A DNA stretch of 64,000 nucleotides from Parachlamydiales bacterium (GTDB lineage Bacteria; Chlamydiota; Chlamydiia; Chlamydiales; SM23-39), in NCBI GenBank assembly GCA_041661445.1, contig JBAZUK010000003.1:129885-193884 (forward strand). The letters run 5' to 3'. Positions 4,160 to 58,148 of this stretch are shown here, piece by piece (the first letter of the stretch is position 1; each line of letters begins with the position of its first letter). The notes beneath the pieces are model-generated. The model did not search any database and was not told the DNA's origin. It was given only the letters and a program-made list of their open reading frames with translations. The position numbers were made by a program, and so were the translations under genes.

Positions 4160-4169
4160 ATCTTTGTTA

Positions 4170-6361: not shown

Positions 6362-6563
6362 CGAATGTTTAAGAAATAATGTTTTAAGCAAATATTTTTT
6401 TCTAAGGATCTAGTTCATTATTTTGCAATAAAAATATCAATATTCATATGCACTTTTCCTTTTTTTTTATTACTAAGTTTTTATTTTGCAATTATTTTAA
6501 AAAATATTTAATGTAAAAAAATATAAGGATTTATTTCCTTAATTTTTTAATGGAGACAATTTT

Positions 6564-25676: not shown

Positions 25677-28600
25677 TTAATGAGCTGCTTCTTGCAGATC
25701 CTCATCTTTTAAACGGCATTTCAGCAGGTAATTTCCCTTAAGCGGATCTAATTGATAACGGCAGCTTTGCAGATATGATTCATCAAAAAAGTAAGATAAA
25801 AAGAAATAATAACTTGCCAAATTGAAATACGAAGAATCAAATCCAGGGATGGCAAATGGCAAAGACGAAATTACTATTATCGGAGGAACAACATTACAAT
25901 CTTTTATAACAACTCCATTAAAAATAATCTTGCATGGAGGATTGGAAGGAATTTCATGAATAGTATTATCTATTGTACTTCCATTAAAATCAGCCAAACT
26001 AGGCTGCCCTCTTGCTCCTGCGAAAACCTGACCTGAACTGTTAACTAAAATCGGTGATGATAAGGTTCCCACATTGCCGCCTAAAGCATTAAAACTTGAT
26101 GTATTAAGAGACGTGATCGCAACCGGTGCTGCGGTGTTAGTGATATCAGTCAATGAAACAAAACTTGGATTGTTTGCATTTATAGTACCTGAAAAGGTAA
26201 TTTTTCCTGAATTAACCAATAAATTATTAATATTTCCAAGGCTCGAAATAGTATTTAAGAATGCTGTTCCAGTTCCCGTATCTATTGAGATACTTTCAAA
26301 ATCGGTTCCTAGAATGCTCACAAATGAAAAACTTCCATTATTTGTAGTAATCTGAAGGTCGTTGGAGTTTCCTAAAACGATAGTCCCGCTTGTAAATGTA
26401 ATAGGTCCGCCAAATGATGTGAAACTGGTTAAGTTCCCTGTGTTTAAATCTATAACATTTCCAGCCGAATATATTTGTGTATTTGCCTTATATGTATTTC
26501 CCAGTAAATTAATATCGTTAGCAGAAGTGATAGTGAAATTCTCAAGAGCGGTGGTTTCACCGACATTCTGATTCAAATAGACATCGCCAGTTCCTGCTGC
26601 AATAGTCAGATCATGTGCTCCATCAACTTTAAATAGGTTGATATCAGCTCCAGGAACTCCGCTGCTGATTGACAAATTTCCGGTAAGTGTTAATGGGCTT
26701 ACGAAATCAATTGTTTGGTTATTTGTATTTAGAGTTCCGCTGCCCGAAACAAGACCTGCTCCATTTTGAAGGAAAGGACCATCTAAAGAAAAATTACCTG
26801 CAAAAGAAAATAAGCTGTCATTAGTTATAGTAAGAGGACCGCCTGCCGATGTAGTTACGTTACCATTGATGCTAAAAGCGACGCCCATCATTGAGATTCC
26901 CGATGCTCCGCTGGTAGTTAAATTACCACTGATAGTTGCTTGAGTAGCAATTCCTGATAGATCGATAGAGGTTGCGCTGATCGATGAAGATGTAAAATTA
27001 TTTGCCGAGCTGACCAAAAAGTTATCTATCGGTCCGACATTTTGGGCAAATGAAATATTTCCAAGACCTGAGTTCAAAGATAGATTTTGAAATCCGCTCA
27101 CGGTTCTTAAAAAACTGATATTTCCAAGACCGATTCCAGTATCTAGCGAAATATTATTTCCAAGGGTTACAGGTCCTGTGAAAAGAATAGGATTTGACAA
27201 GGTTGTTATATTGGCAGAAAGGTTGACATTGCCAAGTCCTAACTGCGAAAAAGATCCGGAAAGGTTAAAAGATGCCCCTGCGCTGATTGTTAAAAGATCA
27301 GAGTTTGTGATATTTACCGGTCCTCCTGCCAAAGTAGTAACAGGATTATTAAGAGTGAATTGAAAGCCGCTTAGATTAATTCCGCTACTGCCTGTACTTT
27401 CAATGGATCCATTGAAAGTAGTTAAACCGGTTCCTGCCAATTGAGTAATAAATCCTGCTGTGATCGCCTGGGTTGTAACATTATTTGCAGTTTCAATAGT
27501 TAATGAATTTATGGGAACCATGCTGCCGATATCTGCCGAAATGATAATATTTCCCGTTCCAGCGATCAGAACCAAATCCTCATTTCCATCAACAGTACTC
27601 GAAATTAAAATATCTCCGCCCGCATTACTATTAATAGTAGCCGCATTCGTTAAAGAGATTGCATTGGTAAATGTAACCATAGAATCTACAGCATGCAAAA
27701 TTCCTTCAAGAGATACAATTCCTGTGCCGCTTTCTGTAAAAGCACCTGAAATCAAGGTTGAAGCTCCGAATTTGAAAGAAGAATCAGCTACATGATTTAT
27801 AACTACAGATCCCCCTGCGGTTGTAATTACTGATCCGTCCAGGGCAAATGCATTGCTATTCAAGTTGATACCGGCTGCTGCGTTTGTATTAAGATCTCCA
27901 CTTAAGGTTGTTGTCCCGCTTCCGGCTGTTTGCATAATCGTAGAAGCACTGATCGAAGATGTATTAATATTATTTGCAGCCGTAAAGATTAGGTTTCCGA
28001 GCCGTGTAACTGAGCCGGCTGCTCCATTTACAGTTATATCTGCAGCGCCCGAATTAAAACTTAGATTTCCCGGTCCATTTAAAGTTGATGAAAGAGTAAT
28101 TGGCTGAGAGGAGGCGGTCAAAAAAGGACTGCCCGTAACTGCAACGCCGCTAGAAAAAGAAATCGCTCCATCACTTGTAACAGAACCGCTAAGCGATGAT
28201 GATCCTGCCCCATTTTGTGTGAAAGCTCCGGATACTACGCAAGTTGCAGTAACACTGAGTAGCCCTGCATTTGTAAGAATCACAGGTCCGCTGTTTGTTG
28301 TTGTAACATTATTATTTAGATTGATAGCACTGGTTATTATCTGAATACCCCCAATAGTATTTGTGTCGGTTGTGTTATTTAGGGAAGTAGTCCCGGTTCC
28401 TGAAGATTGAATAAAAGAAGTAGTTGACAATCCATTAAATGTCGCATCTTTTGCACTTGCTATATTAATAGTTCCTAAACGTGTAGTTGATCCTATAGAT
28501 GTGCTAAAAGTGATGTCGCCAAGACCACTTGTTAAGCTAAGAGTTTCAACACCTGCTGTCGTTGCATTAAGGCTGTTATTAAAAGTCATGGAGCCGATTC

Positions 28601-31600
28601 CCGAACCTGAATTGAAGGACATGTCTCCAGGAAGAGCAGGTGTTATCGATGGTGTTAGGGTAACCGGTCCATTAAAGTTAATTGAAGCATTAGATGTAGT
28701 AAGTGATCCTCTTATTTCAACCGGTCCAGCCCCGCTTTGATTAAATGCGCCTGATGAAGAGATACTCCCTGCCGCAATGCTTGTAAAAGTGCCGGAATTA
28801 TTTACTGTTATAGGGCCTGAATTTGTAGTTGTCCAGTTTGCTCCTCTAACAAAATTTGTTCCATTCAAATCAATTCCAGTTATGCTGCTTGTAGTTAAAG
28901 AGCCTGCAAAAGTAGTTGTTCCGCTGCCTGCTGATTGAGTAAATGATGAAGCTGTTATAGTCTTAGCAGCAGAGATATCATGAGCGCTTGGAATGAGGAT
29001 GCTGCCTATCGGAGTTGAATTTCCAATATCCTCACTAAATAAAATATCACCGCCTGAGCCTGAACTTATAGATAAACTGCCGGGGCCTTGGATAGTATTT
29101 GAAAAAGTAACATTTTGATTATTTGCGCTTGAATTAAAAACAGAAGCTGCAAGAAGTGTTACAGGGCTTGAAAATGAAATATAACCATTAAGGGTAGTAA
29201 TAGACCCTGCAAAATTAACCGGCCCCGCTCCATCTTGAAGATAATGACCAGCGATATTACGCGAGCTGATCGCAAAACCTGTGATTAATCCAGAATTGGT
29301 AACATGTACAGATCCTCCAGTTGTTGTAACAAGAGAGCCGTTCAAGATAAAATTATTTCCGACCAGAGTAACTCCAGCGGCACCATCAGTATTAAGCGCG
29401 CCATTAACTGTTGCTGTACCTGTTGATGAAACCAAATTAACAAATCCTGCAGATGCTGACTGAGCTGTAACATTATGAGAACTAATTATAGTAATACTTC
29501 CAATTCTGGTAGTTGATCCGATATCGGATTGAAGTAAAATATTTCCATTATTGCCTGCAGCAAAGGTTATATCTGCAGCTCCATTGATGGTATTTAAAAA
29601 GGTAATCGACTGATTTGCTACTGATGTATCGAGTAACGGACTTCCGCTGATAGTTGTCGCTCCAGTAAATAAAATTGGCTGACCTGCTGTTATTGATCCT
29701 GACAAAGAAACAGTTCCGCTGCCCATTTGAGTAAAAGCTCCGGATAAAGATGCTGTTCCTGCAAAACCAAGGTTTCCAGAGTTAGTTACACTTAGAAAAC
29801 CATTATTGGTAGTATTGACAGTACTATTAAAATTAAAATTATTTCCTGTTAAGGTAATACCAAGACCAGTCGAAACATTAAGCTGGGCATTGAAAAATGT
29901 AGTACCTGAACCTGCGAACTGAAGTAGTGATGCTAGATTTGTTTGAGCAGAAAAAGTTACATCGTCAGCTGAATTTATTGTTAAGTTTAATAGAGGATTG
30001 ACACCCCCTATAACTCCACTAAAAATAATATCTCCAATCCCGGAATCTACTGTCAGCATATTTGAATTTGCTGAAGTATCATCTAAGATCCCATTAAAAG
30101 TGATATTAGCCCCAGTGCTGCCTAAAGTAGAAAAAACACTGGTTGCTTCAATGATAACCGGACCTGGAAAAGAAAGCGCATTATCATTAGAAACAATATT
30201 TCCAAAAGCATGCAGATCTCCTGAATAAGTGAAATTTAATGCGTTCGAATATTCATTTCCTAAAGTTAAATCTGTTCCAGTAAAGGACGTAGATAAAAAT
30301 TCTTCATTTCCTGATGTTCCCAAATCGCCTACTACAATATTTCCACTACCTGCATCGAAAATCAGTGTTCTCAAACTTGAAGCCGCTGCATGAACATTTC
30401 CCAGGTTGATATTTCCATTACTAGAATTTATAGTAAGATCTGTAATAGCTGATAATTCAATGCCTAAACCGCCTGCAAAGTTTATATCATTTCCATTTGT
30501 GAAAAATGTAGTCAAGGCTCCTGAATTCATATTAAATGAAAAAGAAGGATCAATATTATAGGTCTGAGTGCCGCCAATATTATAATTGCTTCCTGTAAAA
30601 TTTATATTTCCGCTTGCTGTCAGTGTAATAACTCCAGTAATCCCCTGATCTGTTGAAGTTCCAACATTATTAATTGAAATCTCACGACCATCTGCAATAA
30701 TAGAGCTCAAGGATGTAGTGGATTCAATAGGATATCCAATAGGATTTAAGAAAGTAATATTCCCAGCATTTGCATCAAGAGTGAGAGTCTCAGTTCCTGC
30801 AGCTCCATTTACTGTGTTGCTAAATACAATGTTTCCTGATCCTACCGTAGTATGTAAATCTGCGTCGGCACCTACAATGACAGGTCCCGTAAACGATATA
30901 CCCTGATTTGCCGTTAGAGGTCCGCCGATCACAATCTTTCCTGTTCCGTTCTGAATGAATGAACCGTCAATTGTTATAGGAGTTGCTCCTGCTCCCGAGA
31001 CTAATCCTGAATTAGTGACTGTAAATGATCCGCCATTAGTAGTTTTTATTAAAGTCGCTCCCGCACCTACGGTAAAATTATTCCCGGTTAGTGTGATCCC
31101 TGCCGGTGTATTAGTATCAATACTTCCATTAAGAATAGATGTTCCTGTTCCATTTGTCTGGGTTATTGATCCTGCAGTAACTGCCTGAACTGTTGCATCA
31201 TGAGCGCTTGTTATCGTAAATGCTCCAAGACGCGTTGTTCCTCCAAAAGCCCCTAAAATGCTGATATTTCCGCTTCCGGCTATTAATGTAATCGGCTGAT
31301 TTCCGTCTACTGTACTTGCAGCTGAAAATGAAATCGTTCCACCTCCAATACTTGAATCGATTACGGATGGCGCTGTAAGAGTAATTGGGTTTGTTCCTGA
31401 AAAATTAATAGCTGCGCTTAGAGCTGAAGCATTTGTAGTTGTAATTGCGCATCCAAGTAAAACGCTTCCTGAACCGGCCTGGGTAAAAATTCCATTAGAA
31501 GTTATTGACTTGCCCGCTGTAGTTGTCAGCACTCCGCTATTAGTGATGGAGACAGGTCCGCCTCCGGTAGTTGTCATATTCTGCTGAATAGTAAAGTTCG

Positions 31601-34600
31601 TTCCGTTTAAATCAATTCCGATAGCGCCTGAGGTGCTGATGCTGCCGTTAAATAAGGTAGTTCCGCTTCCTGCGCTTTGAGTCAATGATGAAGCGCTAAT
31701 ACCTTGAGTTGTCAAATTCTGTACTGTCGAAACGGTTAAAGAACCAAGAGCTGTTGCATTCTGGGAAAGTAAAATATTCCCTGTTCCTGAAGATAAACTA
31801 AGATTGCCCGGACCGTTAAGCGTACCGGCAAAAGTGATCGGCTGATTTGCAGCTGATGTATTTAAAGATCCTGTTCCTGAAACAGCAAAAGGTCCGTTAA
31901 ACTGCATCGCTCCGCCGGCTGTTATAGCGCTGGAAAGTAAAGTTCCTCCCGATCCGTTTTGTGTTAATGCTCCGGCAACCGAACCTGTTGCTCCCGCTGC
32001 GAAAGTAAGCAGTCCGGTATTTGTAACGCTCAAAGGTCCTGCTGCTGCGGTAGTGAAAGCAGCATTGAACGTAAAAGCAGTTCCTGTCAAGGAAATGCCT
32101 GCTGCCTCTGAAGTATTTAAAGCGCCATTGAAAGTAGTTGATCCCGATCCGGCTGATTGTGCAATAGATGCTGCTGTAATCGCTTGAGTAGAAACAATTC
32201 CCCCCTGAGTGATTGAAAAAGATTTAAGTGCGGTTCCTAAGCCTGCATCTCCGTTTAAAGTAATATTTCCTGATCCGCTATTTAATGTAAGGTTAAATGT
32301 ACCGTCAATAGTCTGACTTAAATTAATATTTCCGGCTCCGGCAGCTGTGTTTAATGAAGTATTTCCCGTTAGTGTTATCGGTCTTGCAAATGAAATATTA
32401 TTGCTTGAGGCAGAGATTGATGATGCTATGTGGACAGGTCCGGTCCCATTTTGAGTAAAAGCGCCTGCAGAATTTATGTTGGCGCCAATAGTTAATATTC
32501 CCGGAGTATTATTTGTAAATGTAACCGGACCAGAATTTGCTGTAGTTATAGAACCGTTTTGAGTAATAGTACCGCCGGTGATTGATATTCCCAATGCCCC
32601 TGTTGTATTAATAGGACCGGTGATTATAGTTGTTCCACTGCTTCCAAGTTGCCCGATAGAAGATGCCTTTACAAGAAGAGGATAGGTGATGTCCTGGACG
32701 CTGTTTACGGTAATAGCCCCAATAGGAACGGTAGCACCTAGGCTTGGTCCAAAAATGATATTTCCGGTTCCTGCTGTCAAAATTAAATTTTGATTACCAT
32801 TTACAGTACTAGATAAAGTGATAGTTCCAGCGCCGGTATCAGTAGAAAGAGTAGTAGATCCTGTCAGGGTAATAGCATTTGCAAAAGAGATATTTTGATT
32901 CACAGTCGCAACTTTGCCTGAAAGAGAGACTGCTCCCCCTCCGCTTTGCGAAAAAGCTCCGGCAATTGATGTGCTGCTTCCTAATATTAAAGATAAAGGT
33001 CCACTGTTAACTATGGAAAATGGTCCTGATCCCGTTGTTATCAGTGTGCTATTTATATTAAAATTAGTACCGGTAAAACTTATCCCGGAAACTCCGGTCG
33101 TTGTCATATTTCCGCTAATTGCAGTAGTCCCAGTTCCGGCGCTTTGAGTAATTGAAGCGGCAGAGATTGCTCCTGCAGTAATATTGCGCGCATTTGTAAA
33201 GTTTAAAGCTCCGATAGGAGTAGATCCGATGGCTCCGCTAAATGTAATATTTCCAGTTCCGGAATTTAAGGTTAAAGCATGAGGTGTTACTATGTTGTCA
33301 TTTGTCAAAGTAGAGCTAAACAAGATATTTTGATTATTTGAAGAAGTATTTAAATTACTTGCCCCTGTAAGAGTAACTCCGCTTAAAAATGAAATTAATC
33401 CTCCCGATGTAAAAGCGCCGGAAAGATTTACGAGACCGGCTCCTGTTTGTGTTAAGGCCCCTGAAATTGAATAGGTGGAATTTGAAAAAGAAAGTAGCGC
33501 TGAATTATTAATTGTTAAAGGCCCGGCTGCTGCTGTAGTAACATTATTATTAAAAGCAAATGCGGATCCGGTAAGATTGATTCCATTAACTATGCTGGCA
33601 TTTAACGCGCCATTAAAAGTAGTCGTTCCGCTTCCGGCTACCTGAGTAATAGAAGTAGCCGAGATTGCATCTGCTGCAACATCTCTTGCACTTGTAATTC
33701 TTAGAGCTCCTATACGAGTAGTATTTCCCACAGTCCCGCTAAATGTAATATCTCTGCTTCCTGAAGCAAGAGTTAAGTTTTGCCCTCCGGCGGTGGTGCC
33801 TTGAATTGTGCTTCCAAAAGCAATATCGCCTGAAGCTGAACCATTTGAATTGATTGACAAATTACTATTTAAGGTAATCGGATCCGCAAATTGAATTAAA
33901 GCATCCTGTGTAGATAAGCTTCCGCCTATATTGACGTTTCCGCCTCCGCTTTGATCAAAAGCGCCGGATATACTCAAACTTGAACCAGCTGCAATAACAA
34001 GAGCGCCTGTATTAACAAGAGTTAAAGGGCCGCCGTTTTGTATAACAATAGATCCGCTTAAATTAATATTAGCAGTTTGAATGGATATACCGTTTACATC
34101 TGTTGTTGTAATACCTGAATTAATGGATGTAGTTCCAACTCCGTTCGTTACAGTTAGATATCCGATATTTACAGAACTTGCCATTGTTAAATCTGTTGCA
34201 GAATCAACAGTAATAAAATCAAACGGAGCAGTAGAACCTACAGGCCCATTAAACTCGATAGATCCTCCACATGGATTAAAATCAAAACTTAAAGAATTCA
34301 CGCCACCGTTAAGGGCATCAACCGTGCTATTAAAAATAACCATTCCAGGGCCAGGGCATGAAAAATCAACTGCACCATTAATAAAGACTGGGACATTATA
34401 TGTCATAATACTTGAAGGCTGATGTCCTGAAAGGATACTAGAATCTGGTGCGTTTTGTTGTAGAGAGACGGCAAAAACATTTGTATTCAGAACTGGTGTT
34501 GGATTAAACGTATTAGCTGTAAGATCAACATTGTTTAAATCCTGTCCCGAGGATCCGATCTGGTTAAAATTATAGATTCCCATGCCTGCATTGACTGTAA

Positions 34601-37600
34601 AATTAAATCCTGGCCCTGAAAGATTTCCCATCGTGATTGTTCCGCCATTACTGATTAAAGTAAGGTCGGAATTACTCAGATTAATCGTTGCTGGTGTAAT
34701 CGTTCCTGTTGTAAAAGTAATCGGTAAAGCATTTGAAGTAACGCTCGCAGGAGACAATGATGTAAAATCAAAAATACCGCCAGCTGTATAATTCTGAGTT
34801 CCATTATTATAAACAGTCCCTGTAAAGGTAATGTCTGTTGTTGCTGTTAATGAAGTTGTTCCAGTTGCTCCAAAAGAACTGGATCCTAAGCCTGCCCATG
34901 TAATATTAGTGGCATTTAAAGTAACATTATTATAAGAAATCATTGCTCCGATTGGTGAGTCAAGAATTATATTACCTGAACCTGCATCCATAGTAAGATC
35001 ATGACCAGCCACAGTTCCATTAAAAGTTCCTGTGATCTGAATATTTCCAGCAGTTCCAACTCCGGTAGAAAGTACGGTGGAAGTGCTGCATATTATATTG
35101 CTATTTAAAGTAATGTTTGTAGCGCTAGTTGTAATGTCTCCACCTAAATGAACAGTAGTTGCTGTTTCATCTACACTTCCGGTTGCGGTAACGGCAGCAT
35201 TCTGAAATACATTATTTGCAGATGTAACCTTTAAACATCCAAGAGGAGTAATTCCTCCTACAGTTGAAGAAAATGTTACATCTCCTGCTCCAGCTATCAA
35301 CTCAATACATTCAGGTCCATCAACTGTATTAAAAAATGTTATATTCCCTCCATTGCTTGTATAAGTAGAAGCAAGCAAAGCATTCACAGCTCCCGAATAC
35401 GAAATATCTCCACCGCTTGTGGTAAGAGTTCCTCCAACGTCATTTGAACCTGTTCCATTTTGTGTAAAACCGCCATCTAAAGTTATTGTTGTAGCCACAT
35501 TCCAAGTTGCAGAACCGCTATTGGTTATTATTAAAGGACCAGCGTTTGTGGTATTTATTGTTAATCCAAATAAATTAAAATTATTACCAATAAATGTTAT
35601 ACCCGCTAAAGAATTGGTATCTAAATTGTCATTTATATCTGTAGTGCCTGCAGCATTTTGCAAAATAATTGATGAAGCGGTTATTGCGGAAACAACAACA
35701 TTATTGGCAGATGTTATAGTAAAAGCACTGATACGATTTGTTGATCCAATAGGGCCCGATAATATTACGTTTCCGGCTCCGGCAGTTAAGGTTAAATCAA
35801 AATTACCATCAACAGCAGATAATAAGATCAAATCGCCTCCGTCTGAGTTGAGAACGATATCATTTGTAAGTGTAATAGGTGAGTCAATTGAAAGATTTCC
35901 TATTGATGAAATATCAGATCCTAAAGAAACACTTCCTGCTCCTGATTGAATAAAGGTTGTGTAAGAAGAAATAGGAGAGCTTGAAGCTACTGTCAAAGTA
36001 CCGGCATTTGTGATTGTAATATTGCCGGAAAATACAGCATCATTAAAATTAATATCCGATCCATTTAATTCAATTGAAGCCGCATTTAAAGTTCCATTAA
36101 AACTAGTGGTCCCGGATATTGGAGTTATATTTCCTGTTACGAAAGCCACAGAAACAGCTACATTAGAATTTAAAGTAACTCCCGCTGCACTTTGTATTGC
36201 CACGTTAGTTAAAGGAATCAAATCGCCAATGCTATTCTGAAAATCAACATTTCCGTTGCCGGCAGTTACAATAAGATTTTCAGCACCATCAACTGCTCCA
36301 TTTAATGTAATATCTCCTAGACCAGATCCTGAATTAAGTGCTGCAGCTGCAATCAGGGTTATATCAGATAAAAAACTTATATTATCATTTGAAGTAGTAA
36401 TTGAGCCGCCAAAAGAAACTGGTCCGGCTCCGTTTTGCGTGAATCCTCCGTCAACGGTAAGAACCGAGCCACCTGAAATAGTTAAAGTTCCGGAGTTAGT
36501 AATGCTCATCACGCCGTTATTATTAGTTGTCACATTATTGAAAGTAAAATTGTTTCCAGTAAGCGTAATTCCACCTGAAGTAGTTATTAAACCATTAAAG
36601 GTTGCCTGTCCTGTTAATGCAGTTCCATTTGATATCGAACCTATTGTCAGACTGGACGATGCAGTTATATTATTTAGACTTTGAATAAAAAGTATAACAG
36701 GCTTTGTTCCTCCTACAATACCGCTAAAAGTAACATTGCCTGCATTTGCATCAAGAGTGAGAGTCTCAGTTCCCGCAAGTCCATTTACTGTATTGCTAAA
36801 TACAATATTTCCAGATCCTACCGTAGTATCTAGATGTGCGTTGGCACCTACAATGACAGGTCCTGTAAACGATATGCCCTGATTTGCCGTTAGAGGTCCG
36901 CCGATCACAATCGGTCCTGTTCCATTCTGAATGAATGAACCGTCAATTGTTATAGGAGTTGCTCCTGCTCCCGAGACTAATCCTGAATTAGTGACTGTAA
37001 ATGATCCGCCATTGGTAGTTGTTATTGCAATCGCTCCCACATCTACAGTAAAATTATTCCCGGTTAATGTAATTCCTACCGGGGTATCAGTATCAATACT
37101 TCCATTAAGGGTAGATGTTCCTGTTCCATTTGTCTGGGTTATTGATCCTGCCGTAACTGCTTGAATAGTTGCATCTTTAACGCTTGTAATCGTAAAGGCT
37201 CCAAGTCGTGATGCTATATCTCCAAAACTTCCTAAAATGCTGATATCTCCGCTTCCGGCTATTAATGTAATCGGCTGATTGCCTTTTACTGTACTTGCAG
37301 CTGAGAATGAAATTGTTCCACCTCCAATGCTTGAATCGATAACGACTGGCGCTGTAAGAGTAATTGGGCTTGTTCCTGAAAAATTAATAGCTGCGCTTAG
37401 AGCTGAAGCATTTGTAGTTGTAATTGCGCATCCAAGTAAAACGCTTCCTGAACCGTCCTGAGTAAAAATTCCATTAGAAGTTATTGACTTGCCCGCTGTG
37501 GTTGTCAGCACTCCGCTATTAGTGATGGAGACAGGTCCGCCTCCGGTAGTTATCATATTCTGCAGAATAGTAAAGGTCGTTCCGTTTAAATCAATTCCGA

Positions 37601-40600
37601 TAGCGCCTGAGGTGCTGATGCTGCCGTTAAATAAGGTTGTTCCGCTTCCGGCGCTTTGAGTCAATGATGAAGCAGTAACTGCCTGAGCTGTAAAATTTTT
37701 AGCTGTTGAAATCGTTAATGTTCCAAGCGAAATTAAACTGCCGGCATTTTGAGAAAATAAAATATCTCCTGTTCCGGATGATAATGTGAGATTATCGGTT
37801 AGGGCAATAGTTCCGTTTAGCGTATTTAAGAAACTAATATTCGCATTGGCTGCGCTGGTATTTAATAAACCTGTTCCTAAAACGGCAAAAGGTCCGTTAA
37901 ACTGCATCGCCCCGCCGGCTGTTATAGCGCTGGAAAGTAAAGTTCCTCCCGATCCGTTCTGTGTTAATGCTCCGGCAACCGAACCTGTTGCTCCCGCTGC
38001 GAAAGTAAGCAGTCCGGTATTTGTAACGCTCAAAGGTCCTGCTGCTGCGGTAGTGAAAGCAGCATTGAAAGTAAAAGCAGTCCCTGTCAAGGAAATGCCT
38101 GCTGCACCTGAAGTATTTAAAGCGCCATTGAAAGTAGTTGATACCGATCCGGCTGATTGTGCAATAGATGCTGCCGTAATCGCTTGAGTAGAAACAGTGG
38201 CTGCATGGGTTATTGAAAAAGAATTAAGCGCAGTTCCTAAGCCGGTGCCGGCATCTGCACTTAAAGTAATATTTCCTGTCCCGCTATCTAATGAAAGATT
38301 AAATGTACCGTCAATAGTTTGACTTAAATTAATATTTCCGGCTCCGGTTCCTGTGTTTAATGAAGTATTTCCCGTTAAAGTTATCGGGCCTGAAAATGAA
38401 ATGTTTGCATTTGTAGTGTTAATATTTCCTGCTAAAGAAACTGCACCTAATCCATTTTGAGTAAATGCTCCTGTTAAATTAATATCTCCTGCAGCAGTAC
38501 TTGTAAGGGTACCGGCATTTGAAATGGTGACAGATAAAGGACCGGCTCCAGTTGTGGTAATTGCAGCTTTTCTAACAACGGAATTTGTATTAATTGAAAT
38601 TCCCGCAACTCCTGAAGTTATAAGCGCGCCATTGAATGTGGTTGTTCCTGAACTTGATGTTTGTGTAATAGAAGCTGCTTTAATACCTTGGGTTGTTAGA
38701 TCGCCTGAACTGCTTACGTTTAAAGCACCTATTGGAGTTATCGATCCGACTGCTCCACTAAGCAAAATACTGCCTCCGCTTGATAACAAGCTCAAACCAT
38801 ATCCGCCATCAATTGTATTACTGAAAATCATGCTTCCGCCACCCACACTCAAATCAATAACTGAAGGAGAAAAAACTATAACTCGGCTTCCTACAGAAAG
38901 ATTACCATGTACAATAGTAGTACCCGAAACATAGAAAAGGCCTGTTCCCGATTGACTAAAGTCCCCATCACAGGTAATTATAATACCTGTTGCTCCGGTT
39001 ATGTTTCCTGTATTGATTATAGTAATATCTCCAAGAGCGGTTGTCGTAATATTTCCACTTGAATAAAAATTATTACCGGAAATATCAATTCCTCCTGAAC
39101 CAACATCAATCGTTCCATTTACTGTAACATCTCCGCTTCCCGTGGTAAGTATTGCTGAATTGGAAACAAGAGATTGCAAGCTAACGTTCTGAGCTGAAGT
39201 AATCTTAAAGGCTGCAATCGGGAAATTAAAACCAATATTTCCGGAAATGAGAATGTTGCTGGCGCCTGATTTTAAGGTTAGATCAAATGGACCGCCACTA
39301 CTGTAGTTATCAATTGTGCTCATAAAATTAATTTCATGAGAAGTCGAGGATGTGTCGATAGATGCATTACCGATCAAAGAGACTGCGGTTGTAAATGAGA
39401 TTTGATCATCTGAGCTTATAGAATTCCCAATCTTTGAAACTCCTAAACCTATCTGTGAAAAAGGACCGCTTAAAACGCAGGTTGCTAAACTCTCCATTGT
39501 CAGAAGCCCGTTATTATTAATCAGCAAAGATCCATTGTCTGCCGTATTAACTGTATTATTAAAGGTAAAAGCATTCCCGGTAAGATTGATTCCTGCACTG
39601 GCTGAAGTAATAATAGGACCATTAAAAGTAGTCGTTCCAGTTCCCGCAGTTTGAATTATAGAAGATGCTGTAATATCATTTGCCGTTAAATTATTCGCCG
39701 TTAAAACTTTTAATAAAACTAATGGTGAAGTTCCGCCTGCAGCTCCGACAAAAGAAATACTTCCGGAGCCTGATGCCAAGGTCAAATCAAAAGTGCCGTC
39801 GACAGTGCTGCCAAATGTAATATCAGCATTATTGGAATTAATCGAACTCGAGCCGGTTAAACTAACCGGATCAGAAAAAATAAGAGGATTAGCGCCTGTT
39901 ACAGTAATGTTGTTTGCGATTTCAATAAGGCTTGCGCTTACAAAAAAAAGATTTGTTAAAGGAGCAGTTCCTCCGATAATGTCAGCAAATGTAACGATGC
40001 CGGTTCCTGCAGTAAAAGTTAAAGAATTTGCGCCATTTAAAGTGCTGTTAAATAAAATATTGGCATCATTAGAAGTTATATTGCTTGTACCTGTTAAACT
40101 TACAGGACTTGGAAAAATTAGCGAATTGTCAACTGTAACAGTTATATTGCTTCCTATCTTAATAAGACTTGCGCTTGCAAAAGATAGTTTTGTTAAAGGA
40201 ACGCTCCCCCCGACAGCTCCAGAAAGTGATATAATCCCGACTGTTCCAGCTCCCAAAGTTAAAGAATTTGCGCCATTTATAGTACTTGCGCTTGTTGCGA
40301 AATTAATATCAGCTCCGGTTGAAACTGCTCCTGAATTTGTAGCATCAAAATTTAATGCTCCGGTTATCGCAACCGGTCCCGTCATTGTAATTATGCCACC
40401 GCTTGTAGTTATGCTGCCGTTTATATTGATGGCAGTTGACCCTGTATAGCTTAATGCACCTGTAGTTTTTGCGCTCGAAGATTGGGTAATATTAGCTGCT
40501 GTGGCTGTTAAACTTGTTAAAGGAGTTGTTCCTCCAATGGCCCCGCTTAATGAAATTGTTCCTCCGGTTCCTGCATTCAAGGTCAATGACGTATTGCCGT

Positions 40601-43600
40601 TAATCGTAGATGCTAATGTTGCAAAATTAATATTTGCTCCTGCAGGCGTTGTTCCTCCATTAGTGCTATCAAAAACAGGCGCTCCAGTAATCAAAACCGG
40701 TCCTGTCATTGTGATGCTTCCGCCGTTTGTTGTGATATTGCCATTCACATTAATAGCGCTTGATCCAGAATAACTCAAAGCTCCTGTTGTTTTTGCGCTT
40801 GAAGTTTGAGTAACGGTTGCTGCAGTAGTAGATAGGCTTGTTAAAGGAGAAATTGCGCCGATAGATCCGGTAAATGTTATTATCCCAGAACCTGCTGAAA
40901 TAGTCAGGGCATTTGCCTCATTAAGGGTACTACTAAAGCTGACATCAGCATTATTGGAATTAATTATACTCGTCCCAATCATGTTCACAGGACTTGGGAA
41001 AGCTAACGGATTGGCTCCTGTAATAGTTATATTGCTTCCTATCTGGATAAGATTTGCACTTGCAAAAGATAGGTTTGTTAAAGGAACGCTCCCCCCGACA
41101 GCTCCAGAAAGTGATATAATCCCACCCGTTCCGGCCTTCAAAGTTAAAGAAGTCGCTCCATTTATGGTACTTGCGCCAGATACAAAATTAATATTAGCTC
41201 CGGCTGGAACAGGTGATGGTCCTGAATTTGTAGTATCAAAAATGCAAGCTGCGCTTAATACAACCGGTCCTGTCATTGTAATTATACCGCCGCTTGTTGT
41301 AATAGAGTTATTTATAGTAATTATAGTTGATCCGGTATAACTTAATGAACCTGTTGTCTTAACGGTTGAAAATTGTATAATATTTTTAGCTGTTGCAGAC
41401 AAACTTGTCAAAGCAGTAGTGCCTATAGCCCCGGTAAATAAAACAGTTCCTGATCCTGCCGTTAAGGTCAGCGAATGTGCACCATTTAAAGTGCTGTTAA
41501 AAGAAATATCGGCACCATTAGAAGTTATATTGCTTGTGCCTGTTAAACTTACAGGACTTGGAAAAGTTAGCGGATTGTCAGCTGTAACAGTTATATTGCT
41601 TCCTATATTAATAAGACTTGCGCTTGTAAAAGATAGTTTTGTCAATGGAGTGCTTCCGCCAATTGAACCTCCAAATGATATAACGCCACCTGTTCCAGCT
41701 CGCAAAGTTAAAGAATTTGCGCCATTAATAGTACTTGCGCTTGTTGCGAAATCAATATTAGCTCCGGTTGGAACTGCTCCTGAATTTGTAGTATCAAAAA
41801 TTGATGTACCGGTTATCGCAACCGGTCCCGTCATCGTAATAACGCTGCCGCTTGTAGTTATGCTGCCGTTTATATTGATGGCAGTTGTTCCTGTATAGGT
41901 TAATGCACCTGTAGTTTTTGCACTCGAAGATTGGGTAATAGTGGCTGCTGTTACTGTTAAACTTGTTAAAGGAGTAGTTCCACCTACAGCACCGCTAAGC
42001 GAAACGATTCCTGCAGATCCCGCATTCAGGGTAAGAACCACAGCTCCATTAAGAGTGCTTGAGAAACCGATATTTGCCCCAGCAGGCGCAACTCCTGCAT
42101 TAGTGCTGTCAAAAGTAGGAGAGCCGGTTATCGCCACCGGTCCTGTCATGGTAATGCTTCCGCCGTTTGTTGTGATATTGCCGTTTACATTAATTGCTGT
42201 TGAACCTGTGTAACTAAGCGTTCCGGTTGTTGCTACGGTTGAAGATTGGTTGATAGTTGCTGCCGTTACAGATAAATTTTTCAATTGGCTCGACGAAGCA
42301 GCTAATGTCGTTGTTCCGCTTCCTCCATTAACAGTCAGACTTCGATTGGAATTACCATCAAGCGTACTATTAAAAGTCACATCAGCATTATTGGAATTTA
42401 TTGTGTTTGAGGGGATTGATACTAATGTAGGAAATGGAAAGACAAGAGGATTAGCTCCCGTTACAGTAATATTACCGACAAGAATATTACTCGTGCTGGT
42501 AAAGATCAGATTAGTTAAGGGAGTAATCCCTCCTATATTATCGGGCAAGTTTATAGGCCCTATCCCTGCTATAAAAGTTAAGGATGTCGCTCCATCAAGA
42601 GAACCGTCCAAATCAATCTGAGAATTAGCTGTTGTAAAAATGGTAGGATTTGATATTACAGTCGCACCTGTTAGCCAAATGAAGCCGTTCATACCGGTAG
42701 TAGTAATATCTCCATTTATATTAATGGCTGATGGCGCTGTATAACTTATAGCGCCTACTGTTCTTGCGGTTGACGATTGCGTTATACTTGCAGCCGTTGC
42801 AGATAAACTTGTTAAAGCATTAGTTCCACCAACAGCTCCTCCGAACGATATAGCTCCTCCTGTACCTGCTCTTAAAATAAGCGGGACAGCTCCATTAAGT
42901 GTGCTTGAAAAACTGATATTAGCTCCGGCGGGAGTTGCTCCTCCATTTGTACTATCAAAAGTAGGAGTTCCGCTTATCGTAACCGGACCTGTCATTGTGA
43001 TGCTTCCACCACTTGTGGTAATGTTGCCGTTCACATTTAATGCCGTAGCACCTGTGTAACTAACCGCTCCGGTTGTTTTTACAGTAGATGATTGGGTGAT
43101 AGTTGCTGCTGTTGCAGACAAACTTGTCAAAGCAGTAGATCCACCAACAGCTCCCGTAAATGTTGTAGTTCCCGATCCTCCTGTAATAATCAACGATTGA
43201 GCACCATCAATAGTACTACTAAAGGACACATTACCATTACCGGAATTGATCGTGCTTGGTCCTGTTATGCTTACTGGCTTTGAAAAAATAAGAGGGTTAG
43301 CTCCTGTTACTTTAATATTGGCTCCAATATTAATACGAGCCGCATCAGTAAATATAAGATTAGTTAAAGTAGTACTTGCTCCAACATTTCCGCCAAACGA
43401 TACATTTCCTCCGGTACCCGCATTAAAAGTAAGTGTTGTTGCTCCATCAAGAGTGTCTGATAAAATAATATCGGCTCCGGCCGGATGTGACCCAGCAGTG
43501 GTATTAATGGTAATACTAGGGTATAACAAAACTGGACCAATTGATACGGTACCACCACTTGTTGTGATATTATGTATCTTACTAAGTAAACTTCCATAGG

Positions 43601-45416: not shown

Positions 45417-47089
45417 GTTACTTTAATGTAAGTAAAAACTCCTCTATTGTCATCTCTATGGTTTAATGGAAAACCAACATCAAGATTGAATACAAAATTA
45501 TAAGGTCCGTTAACTCTTACACCAAGTCCGCTGCCCCAGAGGAAGCTGTCTTTTTCAGATTGCAAAAATACGCCGCCATGATCAAGAAAAGCATCAAACT
45601 GGATTATGTCTTTCCACTTTTTTTTATGTAGCATAAAGAAACATTTGTTTGCAAGTATTGGAGGAGGCAGACGGAACTCAAAGTTCAGATAATAACCATT
45701 ATCACCTAAAGCAGCGGCAAGAGGAAAGCCTCTGATAGTATCAACGCCGCCAATATAAATCTGCTCAGGAAGCGTTAATTTACTGGGACTTAGCTGCCCT
45801 GATCCGTGAAAGTAGAAGAAGCAGTCTTTAGGCAAATACTGTATCCTGTCATAATCCATGTTAAAAATAAAAAATCTTCCGCCTCCGCCTCTTCGCGAGC
45901 TGTTTTTATCAACAGCTTTCAGGCCGCCTAAAAAGTTTGGGATACCGGCAGCCAATCTGAGAACAAGATAATCTCTTCCCTGCATCGGTATAAAATGATC
46001 AAGAGAAGTTCCGAATGTTAAAACCCGAAGCTTATCAAAAGATGATCTACTGGAAAGAACAAAGTTCTGGATCTGTTTAAAATCGAAATATGTAAAAAGA
46101 TCCATGCTCAGAGAGCGTTTTCTGATAAGGGCCTGGTTGAATTTCAAAGTAGCAATATCAGATCTGCCTTTTAAATGCAGACTTGTAAGTTCTTCAATTG
46201 TGAATTTTGAAAAAAGATAGGCAGCTTCCAAAGAAGCTCCTTTTCTATTTAACGGCACATTATAGATAAGATCTGTGAAATACAGCGCATTGATCGGAAA
46301 GCCGACAACTTCAGCAACCGAGAACTTGTCTCCTTGCGTAAACAGATTGCCCCAATCAAGACGCCCGCCTGCCCTGAAATTTGTAGTCAGATTTCTTCCA
46401 TAGTTATTTGCGTTAAGATAAAGATGAATAGGTCTGGCATCATTGACTCTTAGTATTACATCTGCATATCCAAATTCTTTACCCTTTTGAAAAACAGATC
46501 CGACCATGAGGTCGCTGTTGTCATTTACAAGCATTAATGCCTGCAAAAAATCATCATATCTAAGTGCCTTGTTCTGCAACTCCGTAAAATAGCTTAAGAT
46601 GAACTCTTTGGTATAATACTTGTTGCCGACTACCTCAATATTACCAAGCTTTCCTTCGATAACTTCTATTAATAAAGATCCATTTTCAATAGCTTGCGGA
46701 GGAGGATATGCCCTGGCAAGAAAATATCCTTTTCTTGCATAGATATTTTCTATGTAATAACAAAGTTCATAAATGTCTTTAAGAGATAACTTTTTATTTA
46801 GATAGCATTTTGATTTGGAAATTATTTCCTTTGTCGAAATGCATTCATTTCCCTTTACTTCAATGCGATTGATCAAAACCTTTTGGCCATCTGGCATTTC
46901 CAGTCTTTTTTCAGGAATATCGATCTGGATTGCAGGGACTGTTTTTTCCTGATCAAGAGGTTTGGCCTCATATTCCTTTTCCAGCTCGCGCTCTACAACT
47001 CCGGCAGATGGCGCTGGTGGAGGAACGGCAAACAGCCCGATTCTTGTTAGAAGAAAAAAAATAGTGAAAATAAAATATCTTTTAATCAT
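45401..47089 (-). CDS. TpsB outer-membrane transporter (ShlB/FhaC/HecB family, Omp85 superfamily)
   Basis: 562 aa with a signal peptide (MIKRYFIFTIFFLLTRIGLFA). POTRA-like region: VLINRIEVKGNECISTKEI...IENIYARKGYFLARAYPPPQAIENGSLLIEVIEGKLGNIEV. The C-terminal beta-barrel region has alternating aromatics and ends in ...F. It lies immediately 5' of tpsA and overlaps it. Confidence 0.88.
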   Translation of the reverse strand: MIKRYFIFTIFFLLTRIGLFAVPPPAPSAGVVERELEKEYEAKPLDQEKTVPAIQIDIPEKRLEMPDGQKVLINRIEVKGNECISTKEIISKSKCYLNKKLSLKDIYELCYYIENIYARKGYFLARAYPPPQAIENGSLLIEVIEGKLGNIEVVGNKYYTKEFILSYFTELQNKALRYDDFLQALMLVNDNSDLMVGSVFQKGKEFGYADVILRVNDARPIHLYLNANNYGRNLTTNFRAGGRLDWGNLFTQGDKFSVAEVVGFPINALYFTDLIYNVPLNRKGASLEAAYLFSKFTIEELTSLHLKGRSDIATLKFNQALIRKRSLSMDLFTYFDFKQIQNFVLSSRSSFDKLRVLTFGTSLDHFIPMQGRDYLVLRLAAGIPNFLGGLKAVDKNSSRRGGGGRFFIFNMDYDRIQYLPKDCFFYFHGSGQLSPSKLTLPEQIYIGGVDTIRGFPLAAALGDNGYYLNFEFRLPPPILANKCFFMLHKKKWKDIIQFDAFLDHGGVFLQSEKDSFLWGSGLGVRVNGPYNFVFNLDVGFPLNHRDDNRGVFTYIKVTCQAF

Positions 47090-47179
47090 TTCATCATCTT
47101 AAAAAAAATTATATATATACCACAATAATAAAATATAAAGTAAACAAATTGAAATGTTTATAGATTTTTAAAATTTTCT

Positions 47180-47208
47180 TTGGCGGAGAATCTTACGCTA
47201 AATATAAT
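47180..47208 (+). promoter_or_regulatory. candidate sigma-70-type promoter (TTGGCG-17 nt-TATAAT)
   Basis: TTGGCG at 47180-47185, a 17-nt spacer and TATAAT at 47203-47208. AAGGAG RBS at 47221-47226 and ATG at 47233. Confidence 0.4.
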
Positions 47209-47232
47209 TATTGGCTTTTTAAGGAGAAAACA

Positions 47233-47886
47233 ATGAAAAAATTAATTTGTATTTTAACTTATATGATACTGGGAAGTTGTTTTGCAAATAAAAGTGAATA
47301 TTATGTTCATCCGAATGGCACTTTTATTTATGAAAGCAGAAATTTCGGTCCTTATTATATATCGGAATTCCAACTGGATTCTTGCGAAATATACAACAAT
47401 TATATACATGGAAAAATCGACAAATTAAACGAATGGACCCAGGCCTATAAATTTATAATAAATGATGAAGTCATATCATCTCATTATTCATATTTATTTT
47501 CCTTCGGCTCGCTTTTCGATTCCTGCAAATATTTTGATGTATATGATAATACAAACACTTTTATCGGCAGTATCGAAGGCAACTTTAGCGTTGAAGCATC
47601 GGCAGAATTTCTTTTTTATGATAAAGATCACCAATTATTTGCTAAAGCTTACATAAATAGTTCTAATCCTCAAATCACAATATCGTCTCCAGAGGGGCAA
47701 CCATTAATTACCGGCATAAAGATATTTCATGATTACGGTCCATTTTATAATAATCCCAGTTTTCAACGATCTCCTGATTATTATTGGAAAATCAAAATGA
47801 ATGATAATGGTTCTTTAGATCCTCGGTTTCTATGGCCTTTTATTGGTTTTATATCAGAAGTATGGTGGTACGAGAGTCCCGATTAA
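47233..47886 (+). CDS. hypothetical secreted protein / possible lipoprotein, divergent from tpsB
   Basis: Strong RBS and signal peptide with a lipobox-like ILGSC. The protein is rich in aromatic residues and belongs to no family I can name with confidence. Confidence 0.5.
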   Translation: MKKLICILTYMILGSCFANKSEYYVHPNGTFIYESRNFGPYYISEFQLDSCEIYNNYIHGKIDKLNEWTQAYKFIINDEVISSHYSYLFSFGSLFDSCKYFDVYDNTNTFIGSIEGNFSVEASAEFLFYDKDHQLFAKAYINSSNPQITISSPEGQPLITGIKIFHDYGPFYNNPSFQRSPDYYWKIKMNDNGSLDPRFLWPFIGFISEVWWYESPD

Positions 47887-47988
47887 AATCCCTAATAAAC
47901 TCAGTAGGCTTTTAATAAATTTTTCAAATAATCATAAACTTGATTATTGGCAAAAAATTAGACCTCCAAAAATTTTTTTATTAAACAA

Positions 47989-49119
47989 TTAATAAAAAAA
48001 ACTTTTAAATTCGGAATCATTTTTTACATTATCAAAATATTTCTCTGATAAAATTGACTCAAGATCAATATCGCCGAACTGAATGGCTGTTTTAAGCCAA
48101 CCACCTGCAGGTTTGGCTTCTTTTAACATAGCAAAGGCTTTAGCATTGGTTAAAGCCACAAACTTAGTAGCAGATAACTTATAACAGTCTGAAGATAACT
48201 CTTTTACAAGATCAAAATTATTTTCTTCAAAAGCCAATTTATGCAAAAGACAAATTGCATCATCCATGAGATTATTTTTTATCAACAGAAGATATTCATA
48301 GGCTTTTTTGAAATCATTTTTTTCATAGGCAATAAAAGCAAGGTAATGAACGGCTTGATTATAGATCATGCCGTCATGAGTCTGATTTCTAAGATCCATC
48401 AGAAGTTCTTCTGCTTCAGCATAATCTTTTTTTTGGAATAAAAATATTGCCTTATTAAGTTTATTTACCAATTTTTCATCTCTATCATCTTTCGATAAAT
48501 CCTTTGATTTCCTATAAAGCTCAAAGCTCTGGAAAGCAAAAAGGAAAAATAAAGCTCCTAATAAATATTGTCTTAAGGCAAAAGATACCAGTGCAATCAA
48601 TGTAGCAATGACAAATCCCAAAATCAAAGATGCCTTAAATCCTTTAACACCAAAAAAACCTTCCAGCGCGATCCGTAAAAGCTGGCCTCCATCTAAAGGC
48701 AATACCGGGATAAGGTTGACCAAAGACCAGAAAAGATTAACTGAGCTGAAGATTTTAAGAGTGCTTAAGGCTAGAGGATTTTTAATAAAATCAAACCATA
48801 TAATTAAAACAGAAATGGCAAAAAGCAGAATACCGAATAATGGCCCATTCAATGTAATTAAAAACTGCTGGTAATACTTTAACGTTTTTCCATGATATGT
48901 TGTTAATCCTCCCATGGCAACTAATTGAATTTTAACTCTTTGTTTAAAAATCAGAGCCATTACAGCGTGACCTAGCTCATGAACCAAAACTGAAACAAAA
49001 ATTATTCCAATCCAGAAAAAAGTTCCAATCAGACTTCCGCTCATAAAAAACCCGATAAGAGCTGAAAATAACCAAAAAAACGGATGAATATAAATAGGTA
49101 TTTTTTTAATAATTTGCAT
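47989..49119 (-). CDS. M50 family (site-2 protease-type) membrane metalloprotease with C-terminal TPR-like helical domain
   Basis: HExxH in a TM helix (VLVHELGHAV) and the second M50 motif NLIPVLPLDGGQLL. The C-terminal ~170 aa are soluble and helical-repeat-like (YAEAEELL...YNQAVHYLAFIAYEKNDFKKAYEYL). Confidence 0.8.
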   Translation of the reverse strand: MQIIKKIPIYIHPFFWLFSALIGFFMSGSLIGTFFWIGIIFVSVLVHELGHAVMALIFKQRVKIQLVAMGGLTTYHGKTLKYYQQFLITLNGPLFGILLFAISVLIIWFDFIKNPLALSTLKIFSSVNLFWSLVNLIPVLPLDGGQLLRIALEGFFGVKGFKASLILGFVIATLIALVSFALRQYLLGALFFLFAFQSFELYRKSKDLSKDDRDEKLVNKLNKAIFLFQKKDYAEAEELLMDLRNQTHDGMIYNQAVHYLAFIAYEKNDFKKAYEYLLLIKNNLMDDAICLLHKLAFEENNFDLVKELSSDCYKLSATKFVALTNAKAFAMLKEAKPAGGWLKTAIQFGDIDLESILSEKYFDNVKNDSEFKSFFY

Positions 49120-49150
49120 TTTTTAATATCCTTCTTTTATTCTTTGTTAT

Positions 49151-50098
49151 GTGATAGAATTCATTTTCAATCAAGGAAATTTTACAATGTTGAACTTTTT
49201 TAAATCCAAGCTGAAAAACATAACAAATTTCATCAAAAATATTTCAATAGGGAAAAAAATAAAAGATCTTTTTTCTAAGAAAATCGATGATCAGCTTTTT
49301 GAAGAGCTTGAAAAACTTTTTTATGAAGCAGACCTTGGAATAAAAATTTCAGTAGAACTAACAGAAAAATTAAAAGAAATCTTAAAAAAAGACCCTAACA
49401 TTAAAACAGAAGAAATATTGCAGATCATCAAAAAAGAATTATTAAAAGATACGATATCTTGTGAAGAAGTTACCTTAAAAAAACCGCATGTTATAATGAT
49501 CGTGGGTGTAAATGGGAGCGGTAAGACCACTTCTATCGGCAAGCTAGCCAAATACTACAAAGATCAAAATAAAAATGTATTATTGATCGCTGCTGATACC
49601 TATAGGGCAGCAGCCGCAGATCAACTTTCAATCTGGGCAAAAGACATTGAGGTGGATATTGTTAAATCTATCCATGGCTCAGATCCTTCTTCAGTAATAT
49701 TTGACGGCTTAAATGCAGCAAAATCAAGAAATGCGGATATAGTTATTATTGATACGGCCGGAAGACTTCATACTAAAACAAATTTAATGCAGGAACTGGA
49801 GAAAATCAAAAGAGTCTCAAAAAAAGTCATTGAAGACTCTCCTCACGAAACTATTTTAGTAGTTGATGCTACAACCGGTCAAAATGGTGTTGACCAGGCC
49901 AAAATATTTAATAGTTACACTCCTATCTCTTCTATCTTTTTAACAAAATTAGACGGTTCTGCCAAAGGCGGTATAGTACTGGCAATCCAAAAAGAAATAA
50001 AAGTTCCGATTAAATGGATCGGTGTTGGAGAAAAAGTTAAAGACATCCAGCCTTTTGAAGCTGAAAGTTTTATTGATGGACTCCTTTCTTTAGATTAG
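49151..50098 (+). CDS. ftsY: signal recognition particle receptor FtsY
   Basis: SRP-GTPase motifs GVNGSGKTTSIGKLA, DTAGRLH and TKLDGSAKGG. The track start at 49151 is a GTG. The in-frame ATG at 49187 (MLNFFKSKL), preceded by AAGGA, is the more likely start. Confidence 0.92.
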   Translation: MIEFIFNQGNFTMLNFFKSKLKNITNFIKNISIGKKIKDLFSKKIDDQLFEELEKLFYEADLGIKISVELTEKLKEILKKDPNIKTEEILQIIKKELLKDTISCEEVTLKKPHVIMIVGVNGSGKTTSIGKLAKYYKDQNKNVLLIAADTYRAAAADQLSIWAKDIEVDIVKSIHGSDPSSVIFDGLNAAKSRNADIVIIDTAGRLHTKTNLMQELEKIKRVSKKVIEDSPHETILVVDATTGQNGVDQAKIFNSYTPISSIFLTKLDGSAKGGIVLAIQKEIKVPIKWIGVGEKVKDIQPFEAESFIDGLLSLD

Positions 50099-57645: not shown

Positions 57646-58148
57646 AATAAAATCCTCATGATTTCATCGCAGATCTGCAAAATTTCTTTGTTATCATTTA
57701 AAACGATATGATCTGCACATTGCTGATAAAGTTTTTCTCTATTTATAAATTCTTTCTCGAAAAAATGATCATCATTAAAAACAGATCTTTTTTCCTGAGA
57801 AATCCTTTTTTTTAAGATTTCTTTCGAATTTTTAAGATAAATAACAGTTTTTTTGTTTGTAAAAACTGACAAATTATTTTTATTTAAAATACATCCGCCT
57901 GATGTGGCAATAATTGAATTATCAACATTCTTTGTTGAAAAAAAAGCTTCTTCTTCAAGAAGTCTAAACTTTTCTTCTTTCAAAAAACGATATATTTCAA
58001 TTACATCACTTCTTTTCTTATTTCTTTCAAAAAAAATATCAGCGATAACATCATCCATATCTATAAAATTTTTGTTGAGCATCATGGATATTTTTTTTCC
58101 GATTGCAGATTTGCCTGAACTCTTAAATCCGATTAAAATCAAATTCAT
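57642..58148 (-). CDS. aroK: shikimate kinase
   Basis: P-loop LIGFKSSGKSAIGK, then FIDMDD and ATSGG. The track ORF starts at 58157. The ATG at 58148 (MNLILIGF) forms an ATGA overlap with the aroA stop and gives the usual N-terminal length. Confidence 0.85.
   Translation of the reverse strand: MNLILIGFKSSGKSAIGKKISMMLNKNFIDMDDVIADIFFERNKKRSDVIEIYRFLKEEKFRLLEEEAFFSTKNVDNSIIATSGGCILNKNNLSVFTNKKTVIYLKNSKEILKKRISQEKRSVFNDDHFFEKEFINREKLYQQCADHIVLNDNKEILQICDEIMRILL

Follow-up and report, generated by a model that had tools for sequence, protein, structure and literature searches.

We analyzed a stretch of 64,000 nucleotides (nt) from a Parachlamydiales bacterium (contig JBAZUK010000003.1, positions 129,885 to 193,884), which is referred to here as the window and is numbered from its first letter. 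The window has a G+C content of ~30% and carries tpsA, one intact open reading frame (ORF) that is predicted to encode a giant two-partner secretion (TPS) exoprotein and that contains two long, similar blocks about 6 kb apart. How these two blocks came to resemble each other is the subject of this work. Directly upstream of tpsA, on the same strand, lies tpsB, whose end overlaps the start of tpsA by 16 nt and whose product is a predicted Omp85-type transporter of the ShlB/FhaC kind (Table 1). The gene had been labeled tpsA in an original prediction made from the sequence without database searches, and this label is borne out by the TPS domain (PF05860) of its product and by the ShlB and POTRA_2 domains of the TpsB encoded upstream. 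With a TPS domain and an adjacent POTRA-bearing transporter both present, TpsA and TpsB can be assigned to the two-partner secretion systems (type Vb). The N terminus of TpsA is hydrophobic and by eye resembles a signal peptide; secretion to the surface is a prediction from sequence.

In TpsA, the TPS domain is followed by an N-proximal class of repeats (amino acids [aa] ~500 to 1900) and then by an array of 165-aa predicted β-solenoid modules (aa ~1900 to 6300), after which comes a conserved C-terminal tail. Irregular segments occur near aa 3430 to 3700, 4890 to 5080, and 6290 to 6480. The repeat modules matched no Pfam family in a Pfam scan. An AlphaFold2 model of the N-proximal block (copy 1) was all-β, with a predicted local distance difference test score (pLDDT) of 94.7. 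A Foldseek search with this model against the PDB returned no solved structure at an E value of 1e-3 or below; the weaker matches (E > 1e-3) were mostly β-helix or β-roll proteins, including HxuA, EtpA, HMW1, and Ag43. TpsA resembles the FHA/FhaB-type exoproteins (FhaB/FhaC, HMW1, HxuA, and EtpA) in its N-terminal TPS domain, its adjacent ShlB/POTRA_2 gene, and its very long predicted β-solenoid passenger of degenerate repeats, whereas it differs from them in its host phylum, Chlamydiota, and in modules that have no Pfam family. FhaB is also smaller than the 6,579-aa TpsA of the window. Text searches of a limited literature found no paper on TPS systems in chlamydiae, which is not proof of novelty; the locus documents large TPS exoproteins in environmental Chlamydiota. 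The LysRS encoded in the window shares 100% identity with a protein recorded as "MAG: Parachlamydiales bacterium"; the closest named relatives after this are "Candidatus Anoxychlamydiales" (77%).

Self-BLASTN of tpsA revealed a single outstanding direct repeat, formed by the two block copies, with 88.2% nt identity over 1,679 columns, 30 gap positions, and a bit score of 2136. Both copies are in frame within the uninterrupted ORF. A repeat search and global alignment gave copy-to-copy offsets of 5976, 5979, 6000, and 6006 nt, all multiples of 3, and every indel within the pair (3, 9, 12, and 6 nt) is likewise a multiple of 3. The original prediction had described an in-frame pair with offsets divisible by 3, and in these respects it was correct, as it was in its example that positions 31871 to 32100 and 37871 to 38100 differ at only a few bases (6 of 230). 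Its "three-module block" spans about 3.4 modules, out of roughly 27 similar modules in the array, with roughly 12 modules between the copies. "Almost identical" overstates the 88.2% found overall, which is a mosaic of tracts at 95 to 100% identity and a patch at 45 to 70%. Other pairs of the 165-aa module class reach no more than 73% nt identity over no more than 150 nt (36 to 50% at the protein level). The claim that the remaining modules are far more divergent thus withstood an alignment check for this class, but it does not extend to the whole gene: in the N-proximal repeat class, positions 39953 to 40834 and 41405 to 42274 (minus strand) form a second elevated pair, 80.5% identical over 882 nt at an offset of 1452. 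Two orthologues introduced below, L001 and L003, have their own 84 to 85% pairs in the same N-proximal region, which is the part of TpsA that differs most in length between species.

Table 1. Coordinates of tpsA, its partner gene, and the repeated blocks in the window
Feature	Positions	Strand	Description
tpsA	25677..45416	minus	One intact ORF, 6,579 codons; predicted giant two-partner secretion exoprotein
TPS secretion domain	44607..45347	minus	aa 24-270; Pfam PF05860, E 1.3e-30, 107.6 bits against a cutoff of 33.5
tpsB	45401..47089	minus	Predicted Omp85-type transporter, 562 aa; ShlB PF03865, E 5e-26; POTRA_2 PF08479, E 8e-17
Block copy 1	36727..38405	minus	N-proximal, aa 2338-2896; about 3.4 predicted β-solenoid modules
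Block copy 2	30751..32399	minus	C-proximal, aa 4340-4888; C-terminal end abuts an irregular, non-modular segment
Spacer between copies	32400..36726	minus	1,443 aa; holds a poorly repetitive segment at aa ~3430-3700
Longest exact tract	37960..38069 paired with 31960..32069	minus	110 nt
Divergent patch, copy 1	37664..37870	minus	45-70% nt identity, dS > 1; 9- and 12-nt indels inside; old and unconverted
Partner patch, copy 2	31685..31870	minus	

The similarity of the two copies is not uniform along their length. Tracts at 95 to 100% identity are broken by the divergent patch of ~190 nt, and 13 exact tracts of at least 30 nt are scattered over the pair, the next longest after the 110-nt tract being 89, 86, 61, and 51 nt. 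Overall, the synonymous divergence (dS) between the window copies is 0.23 to 0.25 and the nonsynonymous divergence (dN) is 0.07 to 0.09, while dS in 30-codon windows spans 0 to above 1. Among codons for identical amino acids, the rate of synonymous differences is 0.04 to 0.06 in two tracts versus 0.43 in the patch. These differences are clustered, with a maximum of 18 in 30 identical-aa codons, which was unmatched in 20,000 permutations (P < 5e-5). A single duplication followed by clock-like divergence gives no such mosaic. We also considered a third module as the donor of the divergent patch and ruled it out: within the gene, each version of the patch still best matches the other, and since neither has a better match in a third module, the patch is an older layer and not an import.

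We compared five giant TpsA genes, all metagenome-derived: that of the window, two Chlamydiota metagenome-assembled genome loci found in a scan of one genome per species (L001, JAZKBL010000020.1; L002, JAJFMJ010000017.1), and two further collinear orthologues from a metagenome scan (L003 and L004). When the block was searched against a protein database, all matches were fragments of less than 1,000 aa, at best 54% identical; the contigs of two such fragments (L019 and L020) appeared frameshift ridden and did not contain both block positions. In 5/5 genes, the best and second-best matches to the window block sit 1,957 to 2,120 aa apart. The spacer measures 1,443, 1,433, 1,417, 1,436, and 1,535 aa (window first, then L001 to L004), and that of the window aligns collinearly with those of L001, L002, and L003 at 50 to 54% identity. 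Other parts of the protein are far less constant in length. Of the two genes whose N terminus is complete, that of the window has 2,338 aa ahead of copy 1 and that of L002 has 1,372 aa; in the four genes that run to a stop codon, copy 2 is followed by 884 to 1,751 aa.

Neighbor-joining trees (500 bootstrap replicates) were built from the ten block copies together with 150 flanking residues on each side. The left and right flanks both split into copy 1 and copy 2 by position, with 100% bootstrap support. Since the flanks are split by position and both sites are occupied in all five orthologues, the two-copy arrangement predates these lineages. The block interiors behave differently in three lineages, in which they group by genome (bootstrap values of 100 for the window, 100 for L001, and 98 for L004), whereas those of L002 and L003 keep positional orthology (100% for the copy 1 pair and 100% for the copy 2 pair). 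The window copies differ from each other by a dS of 0.23 and the L001 copies by 0.22; in L002 to L004, the corresponding values run from 1.8 to saturated, and between species the block dS is 1.6 to 2.0 or saturated. At the protein level, the window copies are 88% identical to each other versus 53 to 64% to orthologues. The similarity of the window copies, which extends to synonymous sites, arose later, in their own lineage. L001 has a nt-level pair of its own, 96.3% identical over 1,364 nt at an offset of 5955. It includes a 1,030-nt tract with no differences (positions 10776 to 11805 and 16731 to 17760 of L001), flanked by decaying identity, and its copies encode 100% identical protein across the core. 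L002, L003, and L004 show faint or no nt similarity between copies at the corresponding offset.

The pair is thus old; its similarity is genome specific, its synonymous sites are homogenized, its tracts form a mosaic, and its spacing is conserved. These observations make it highly probable that the blocks, in the TpsA fiber of an uncultured, Parachlamydiales/Anoxychlamydiales-like chlamydia, are an ancient intragenic paralogue pair that has been kept alike by repeated, patchy gene conversion (concerted evolution) rather than a new duplication. The original prediction had suggested that the block was copied or homogenized recently. Homogenization fits the genome-specific grouping and the dS of 0.23; new copying does not. 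The L001 pair appears to be an independent and more recent homogenization at the same two sites.

In the process that we envisage, one copy would repeatedly template the repair or overwriting of the other by non-reciprocal homologous recombination. The converted patches, tens to hundreds of bases long, would leave copy number, spacing, and reading frame unchanged. Conversion events of differing ages would leave near-identical tracts, moderately diverged tracts, and the one ~190-nt patch that was skipped recently. The enzymology would be RecA-dependent strand invasion, with mismatch repair contributing to the patchiness. Crossover products, that is, a 6-kb deletion or a triplication, would also arise and then be removed by selection; a deletion would strip the protein of about 12 modules together with a segment that is unique and non-repetitive. 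Concerted evolution of this kind is an ordinary, known process, and no new mechanism is involved.

Several points weigh against the conversion reading or limit its detail. The comparison comprises five genomes, all of them metagenome-derived, and the argument is built on assembled sequences. In a tree of the spacers, only L002 and L003 were grouped (99%), and the relations of the window, L001, and L004 were not separated, so that homogenization may have begun once or three times. When the blocks were painted against L002 and L003, both copies in the window and in L001 were "type 1"-like at the 5' end of the block and "type 2"-like in its 3' part. This pattern would mean transfers in both directions, and given the spacer tree, the direction is ambiguous. 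Finally, the perfect 1,030-nt tract in L001 may reflect conversion in the very recent past, or it may stem from short-read assembly, in principle as an artifact of collapse.

We also considered the possibility that the pair is the remnant of a tandem duplication of the full 6-kb unit. This was rejected: a best match at the +2,000-aa offset exists only for aa ~1830 to 1940 and ~2216 to 2890, and the rest of the unit lacks one. The ancient duplicated segment would therefore have been at most about 1,060 aa long, unless the remainder has been erased.

One alternative is an active length switch, in which crossover between the copies frequently produces coexisting alleles with ~2,000-codon deletions or re-duplications, resulting in Periscope-like variation in length, and the identity of the copies is kept because such a switch is useful. 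A crossover would remove or add 1,992 to 2,002 codons in frame (the spacer plus one block length). A frame-preserving 6-kb deletion is possible in principle, because the two blocks are repeated directly and in frame and share 13 exact tracts of at least 30 nt, including three of at least 86 nt; the minimal pairing lengths for RecA-dependent recombination in Escherichia coli lie below the 30-nt tracts seen here. Recombination between the copies clearly occurs, since conversion is seen, and the passenger varies between close relatives (see below). Variation in surface-protein length via highly similar DNA repeats is also an established idea (PMC8201768). Against this stand the orthologues, since none of the five genes examined has a deleted or triplicated form, and in four lineages the spacer stays within 1,417 to 1,443 aa, against differences of about 1,000 aa in other regions. 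The copies, moreover, are not tandem and are 88% identical, and the variation seen in the close relative is N-proximal and not at this pair. We therefore consider an active switch unlikely, and the original proposal that the pair drives ~2,000-codon length changes finds no comparative support: even over all five genes, the spacer ranges only from 1,417 to 1,535 aa while the ends differ by ~1,000 aa. The length of TpsA appears to evolve elsewhere than at this pair, and the conserved spacer suggests selection on the length or content of the fiber.

The search for close relatives yielded two kinds of contig. Three contigs found via LysRS and HtrA (L015 to L017) are 100% identical to the window; these contigs from other assemblies are 4.5 to 15 kb long and do not reach the block. 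Exact-product look-ups of the window TpsB and of the downstream BNR protein gave no match. A further contig (L018; JGI Ga0172379_10014107), found via a 217-aa ORF, matches window positions 44011 to 49591; across the flanking genes, tpsB, and the TPS domain, the two sequences share 97.4% nt identity. Past residue ~400 to 450, right after the TPS domain, the encoded TpsA drops abruptly to 30 to 60% aa identity, and the contig stops inside tpsA at about window position 40461. The pattern suggests a passenger that was replaced by another allele, or reshuffled, while the secretion domain ahead of it was conserved. Source samples identified by way of LysRS and the 217-aa ORF are SRR18595301, ERZ27249449, and JGI 3300014208.

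A different proposal accepts gene conversion and adds that homogenization is itself selected for. Under it, the fiber would need two identical surfaces of ~560 residues separated by ~2,000 residues, which could serve bivalent binding, for example, or let fibers self-associate in register. If true, this would account for two sites that remain alike in three deep lineages while the intervening ~12 modules diverge and the spacing stays fixed. We regard it as speculative and rather improbable. In a weaker variant, the pair would act as a low-frequency, frame-preserving 6-kb length switch.

A recent segmental duplication, the headline claim of the original prediction, would have inserted a 1.65-kb, three-module piece 6 kb away and lengthened the gene, with 12% divergence accumulating afterwards. 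The high identity relative to other module pairs and the in-frame offsets are what such an event would produce. The pair, however, is common to five deeply diverged orthologues: the supposed recipient site holds a homologous block in 4/4 of the others, the flanks are orthologous by position with 100% bootstrap support, and both the spacing and the spacer are conserved. Divergence along the copies is also not uniform, with dS running from 0 to above 1. The genome-specific homogenization of synonymous sites therefore leads us to reject both a recent duplication, which we hold to be very improbable, and constraint on the protein alone.

It is more improbable still that the pair is an assembly artifact, in which one copy was placed twice or the reads of two strains were merged. 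The source is a metagenome bin, the contigs from the same population are short (none reaches the block), and the contig of the 97% relative ends inside tpsA, all of which keeps the idea in view. Against it, the ORF is intact over 19.7 kb, the copies are 12% different with four in-frame indels, and their distinct flanks match the positional orthologues in four independent assemblies. Because it is collinear with these four, we take the window to be assembled correctly here. The warning that the region is prone to short-read misassembly is justified to a modest degree only, since the copies are 88% identical and match exactly over no more than 110 nt at a stretch. Least probable of all, and close to negligible, is purifying selection on the protein without DNA exchange: although dN is below dS between the window copies (0.07 versus 0.23) and the L001 core is 100% identical in protein, selection of this kind cannot hold synonymous sites identical, as they are over stretches of 110 nt in the window and 1,030 nt in L001, and the divergence of the block to 61 to 64% aa identity between species indicates that constraint is not extreme.

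Concerted evolution by gene conversion is familiar in bacteria from rRNA operons, tuf genes, and outer membrane protein paralogues of Helicobacter and Neisseria. Like such paralogues, the tpsA blocks are older than the species split, cluster by genome, are homogenized at synonymous sites, and show a mosaic of tract ages at constant copy number. They differ in that both partners lie in one ORF, as direct repeats 6 kb apart that make up 3.4 of ~27 modules, and in that, within one phylum, at least three deep lineages have homogenized the same two sites, which are diverging in two others. Recombinational homogenization between genes has been described for the giant surface-protein genes of Apilactobacillus kunkeei (PMC12863079). 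Periscope proteins have variable-length surface stalks of tandem repeats that are highly identical in DNA, and strains differ in how many repeats they have (Whelan et al. 2021, PMC8201768). TpsA is likewise predicted to be a repetitive, elongated surface or secreted protein whose DNA identity is a substrate for in-frame intragenic recombination. Its two copies, in contrast, are non-adjacent and 88% identical, with number and spacing conserved over five lineages, and do not form the tandem, highly identical DNA repeats of that class. The tpsA pair is a compact natural example of conversion without fixation of crossovers between direct repeats 6 kb apart in one bacterial gene, seen in several lineages. 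It is somewhat unusual in that the repeats are non-adjacent within one ORF, few modules are involved, and the same sites are affected in three deep lineages at fixed spacing. It also serves as a warning that high repeat identity in giant adhesin genes should not be taken as a sign of recency without a comparison of orthologues.

Some further features of TpsA are of note. The three irregular segments (at about 34317 to 35127, 30177 to 30747, and 25977 to 26547 of the window) are weakly related, with about 30 to 35% identity at offsets of +1405 and +2773 aa, and the second of them (aa ~4890 to 5080) begins exactly where block copy 2 ends. Together these segments suggest an older three-part superstructure of the TpsA fiber. 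At aa ~6480 to 6579 (positions 25677 to 25980, minus strand), TpsA ends in a motif, PFA[IV]PGF[DE]SS.FNL[AS]..[YF][FY]F followed by [YD]F[FI][DN][EK], that is common to four orthologues (the window, L002, L003, and L004); L001 is cut before its end. The motif had no Pfam match; it might have been kept in this TpsA family as an anchor or have a role in processing. A second TPS-type ORF of 1,224 aa lies 6.4 kb away from tpsA (positions 15570 to 19244, minus strand) and carries a filamentous hemagglutinin N-terminal domain (TIGR01901, E 5e-19). No second tpsB was identified beside it, where, among ORFs of at least 150 aa, the nearest on one side encodes a PreP-type M16 peptidase (Pfam) and the nearest on the other is a 282-aa ORF without annotation; the 1,224-aa protein may share the single TpsB.

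Elsewhere in the window, a compact shikimate pathway operon (positions 54103 to 59425, minus strand) encodes, in order of transcription, EPSP synthase, shikimate kinase, chorismate synthase, DHQ synthase, and a fused aroD/aroE. The match of this fused gene to NCBIfam PRK09310 has an E value of 2e-104, yet its score lies below the curated cutoff of that family (350 versus 598 bits). Positions 61216 to 62847 (plus strand) hold a 543-aa ORF that had no NCBIfam match. A truncated gene call of the same ORF on the 100% identical contig L016 gave weak to faint Pfam matches to RING zinc-finger and TPR families, and the product is a possible eukaryote-like E3-ligase effector. Effectors of this kind are common in environmental chlamydiae.

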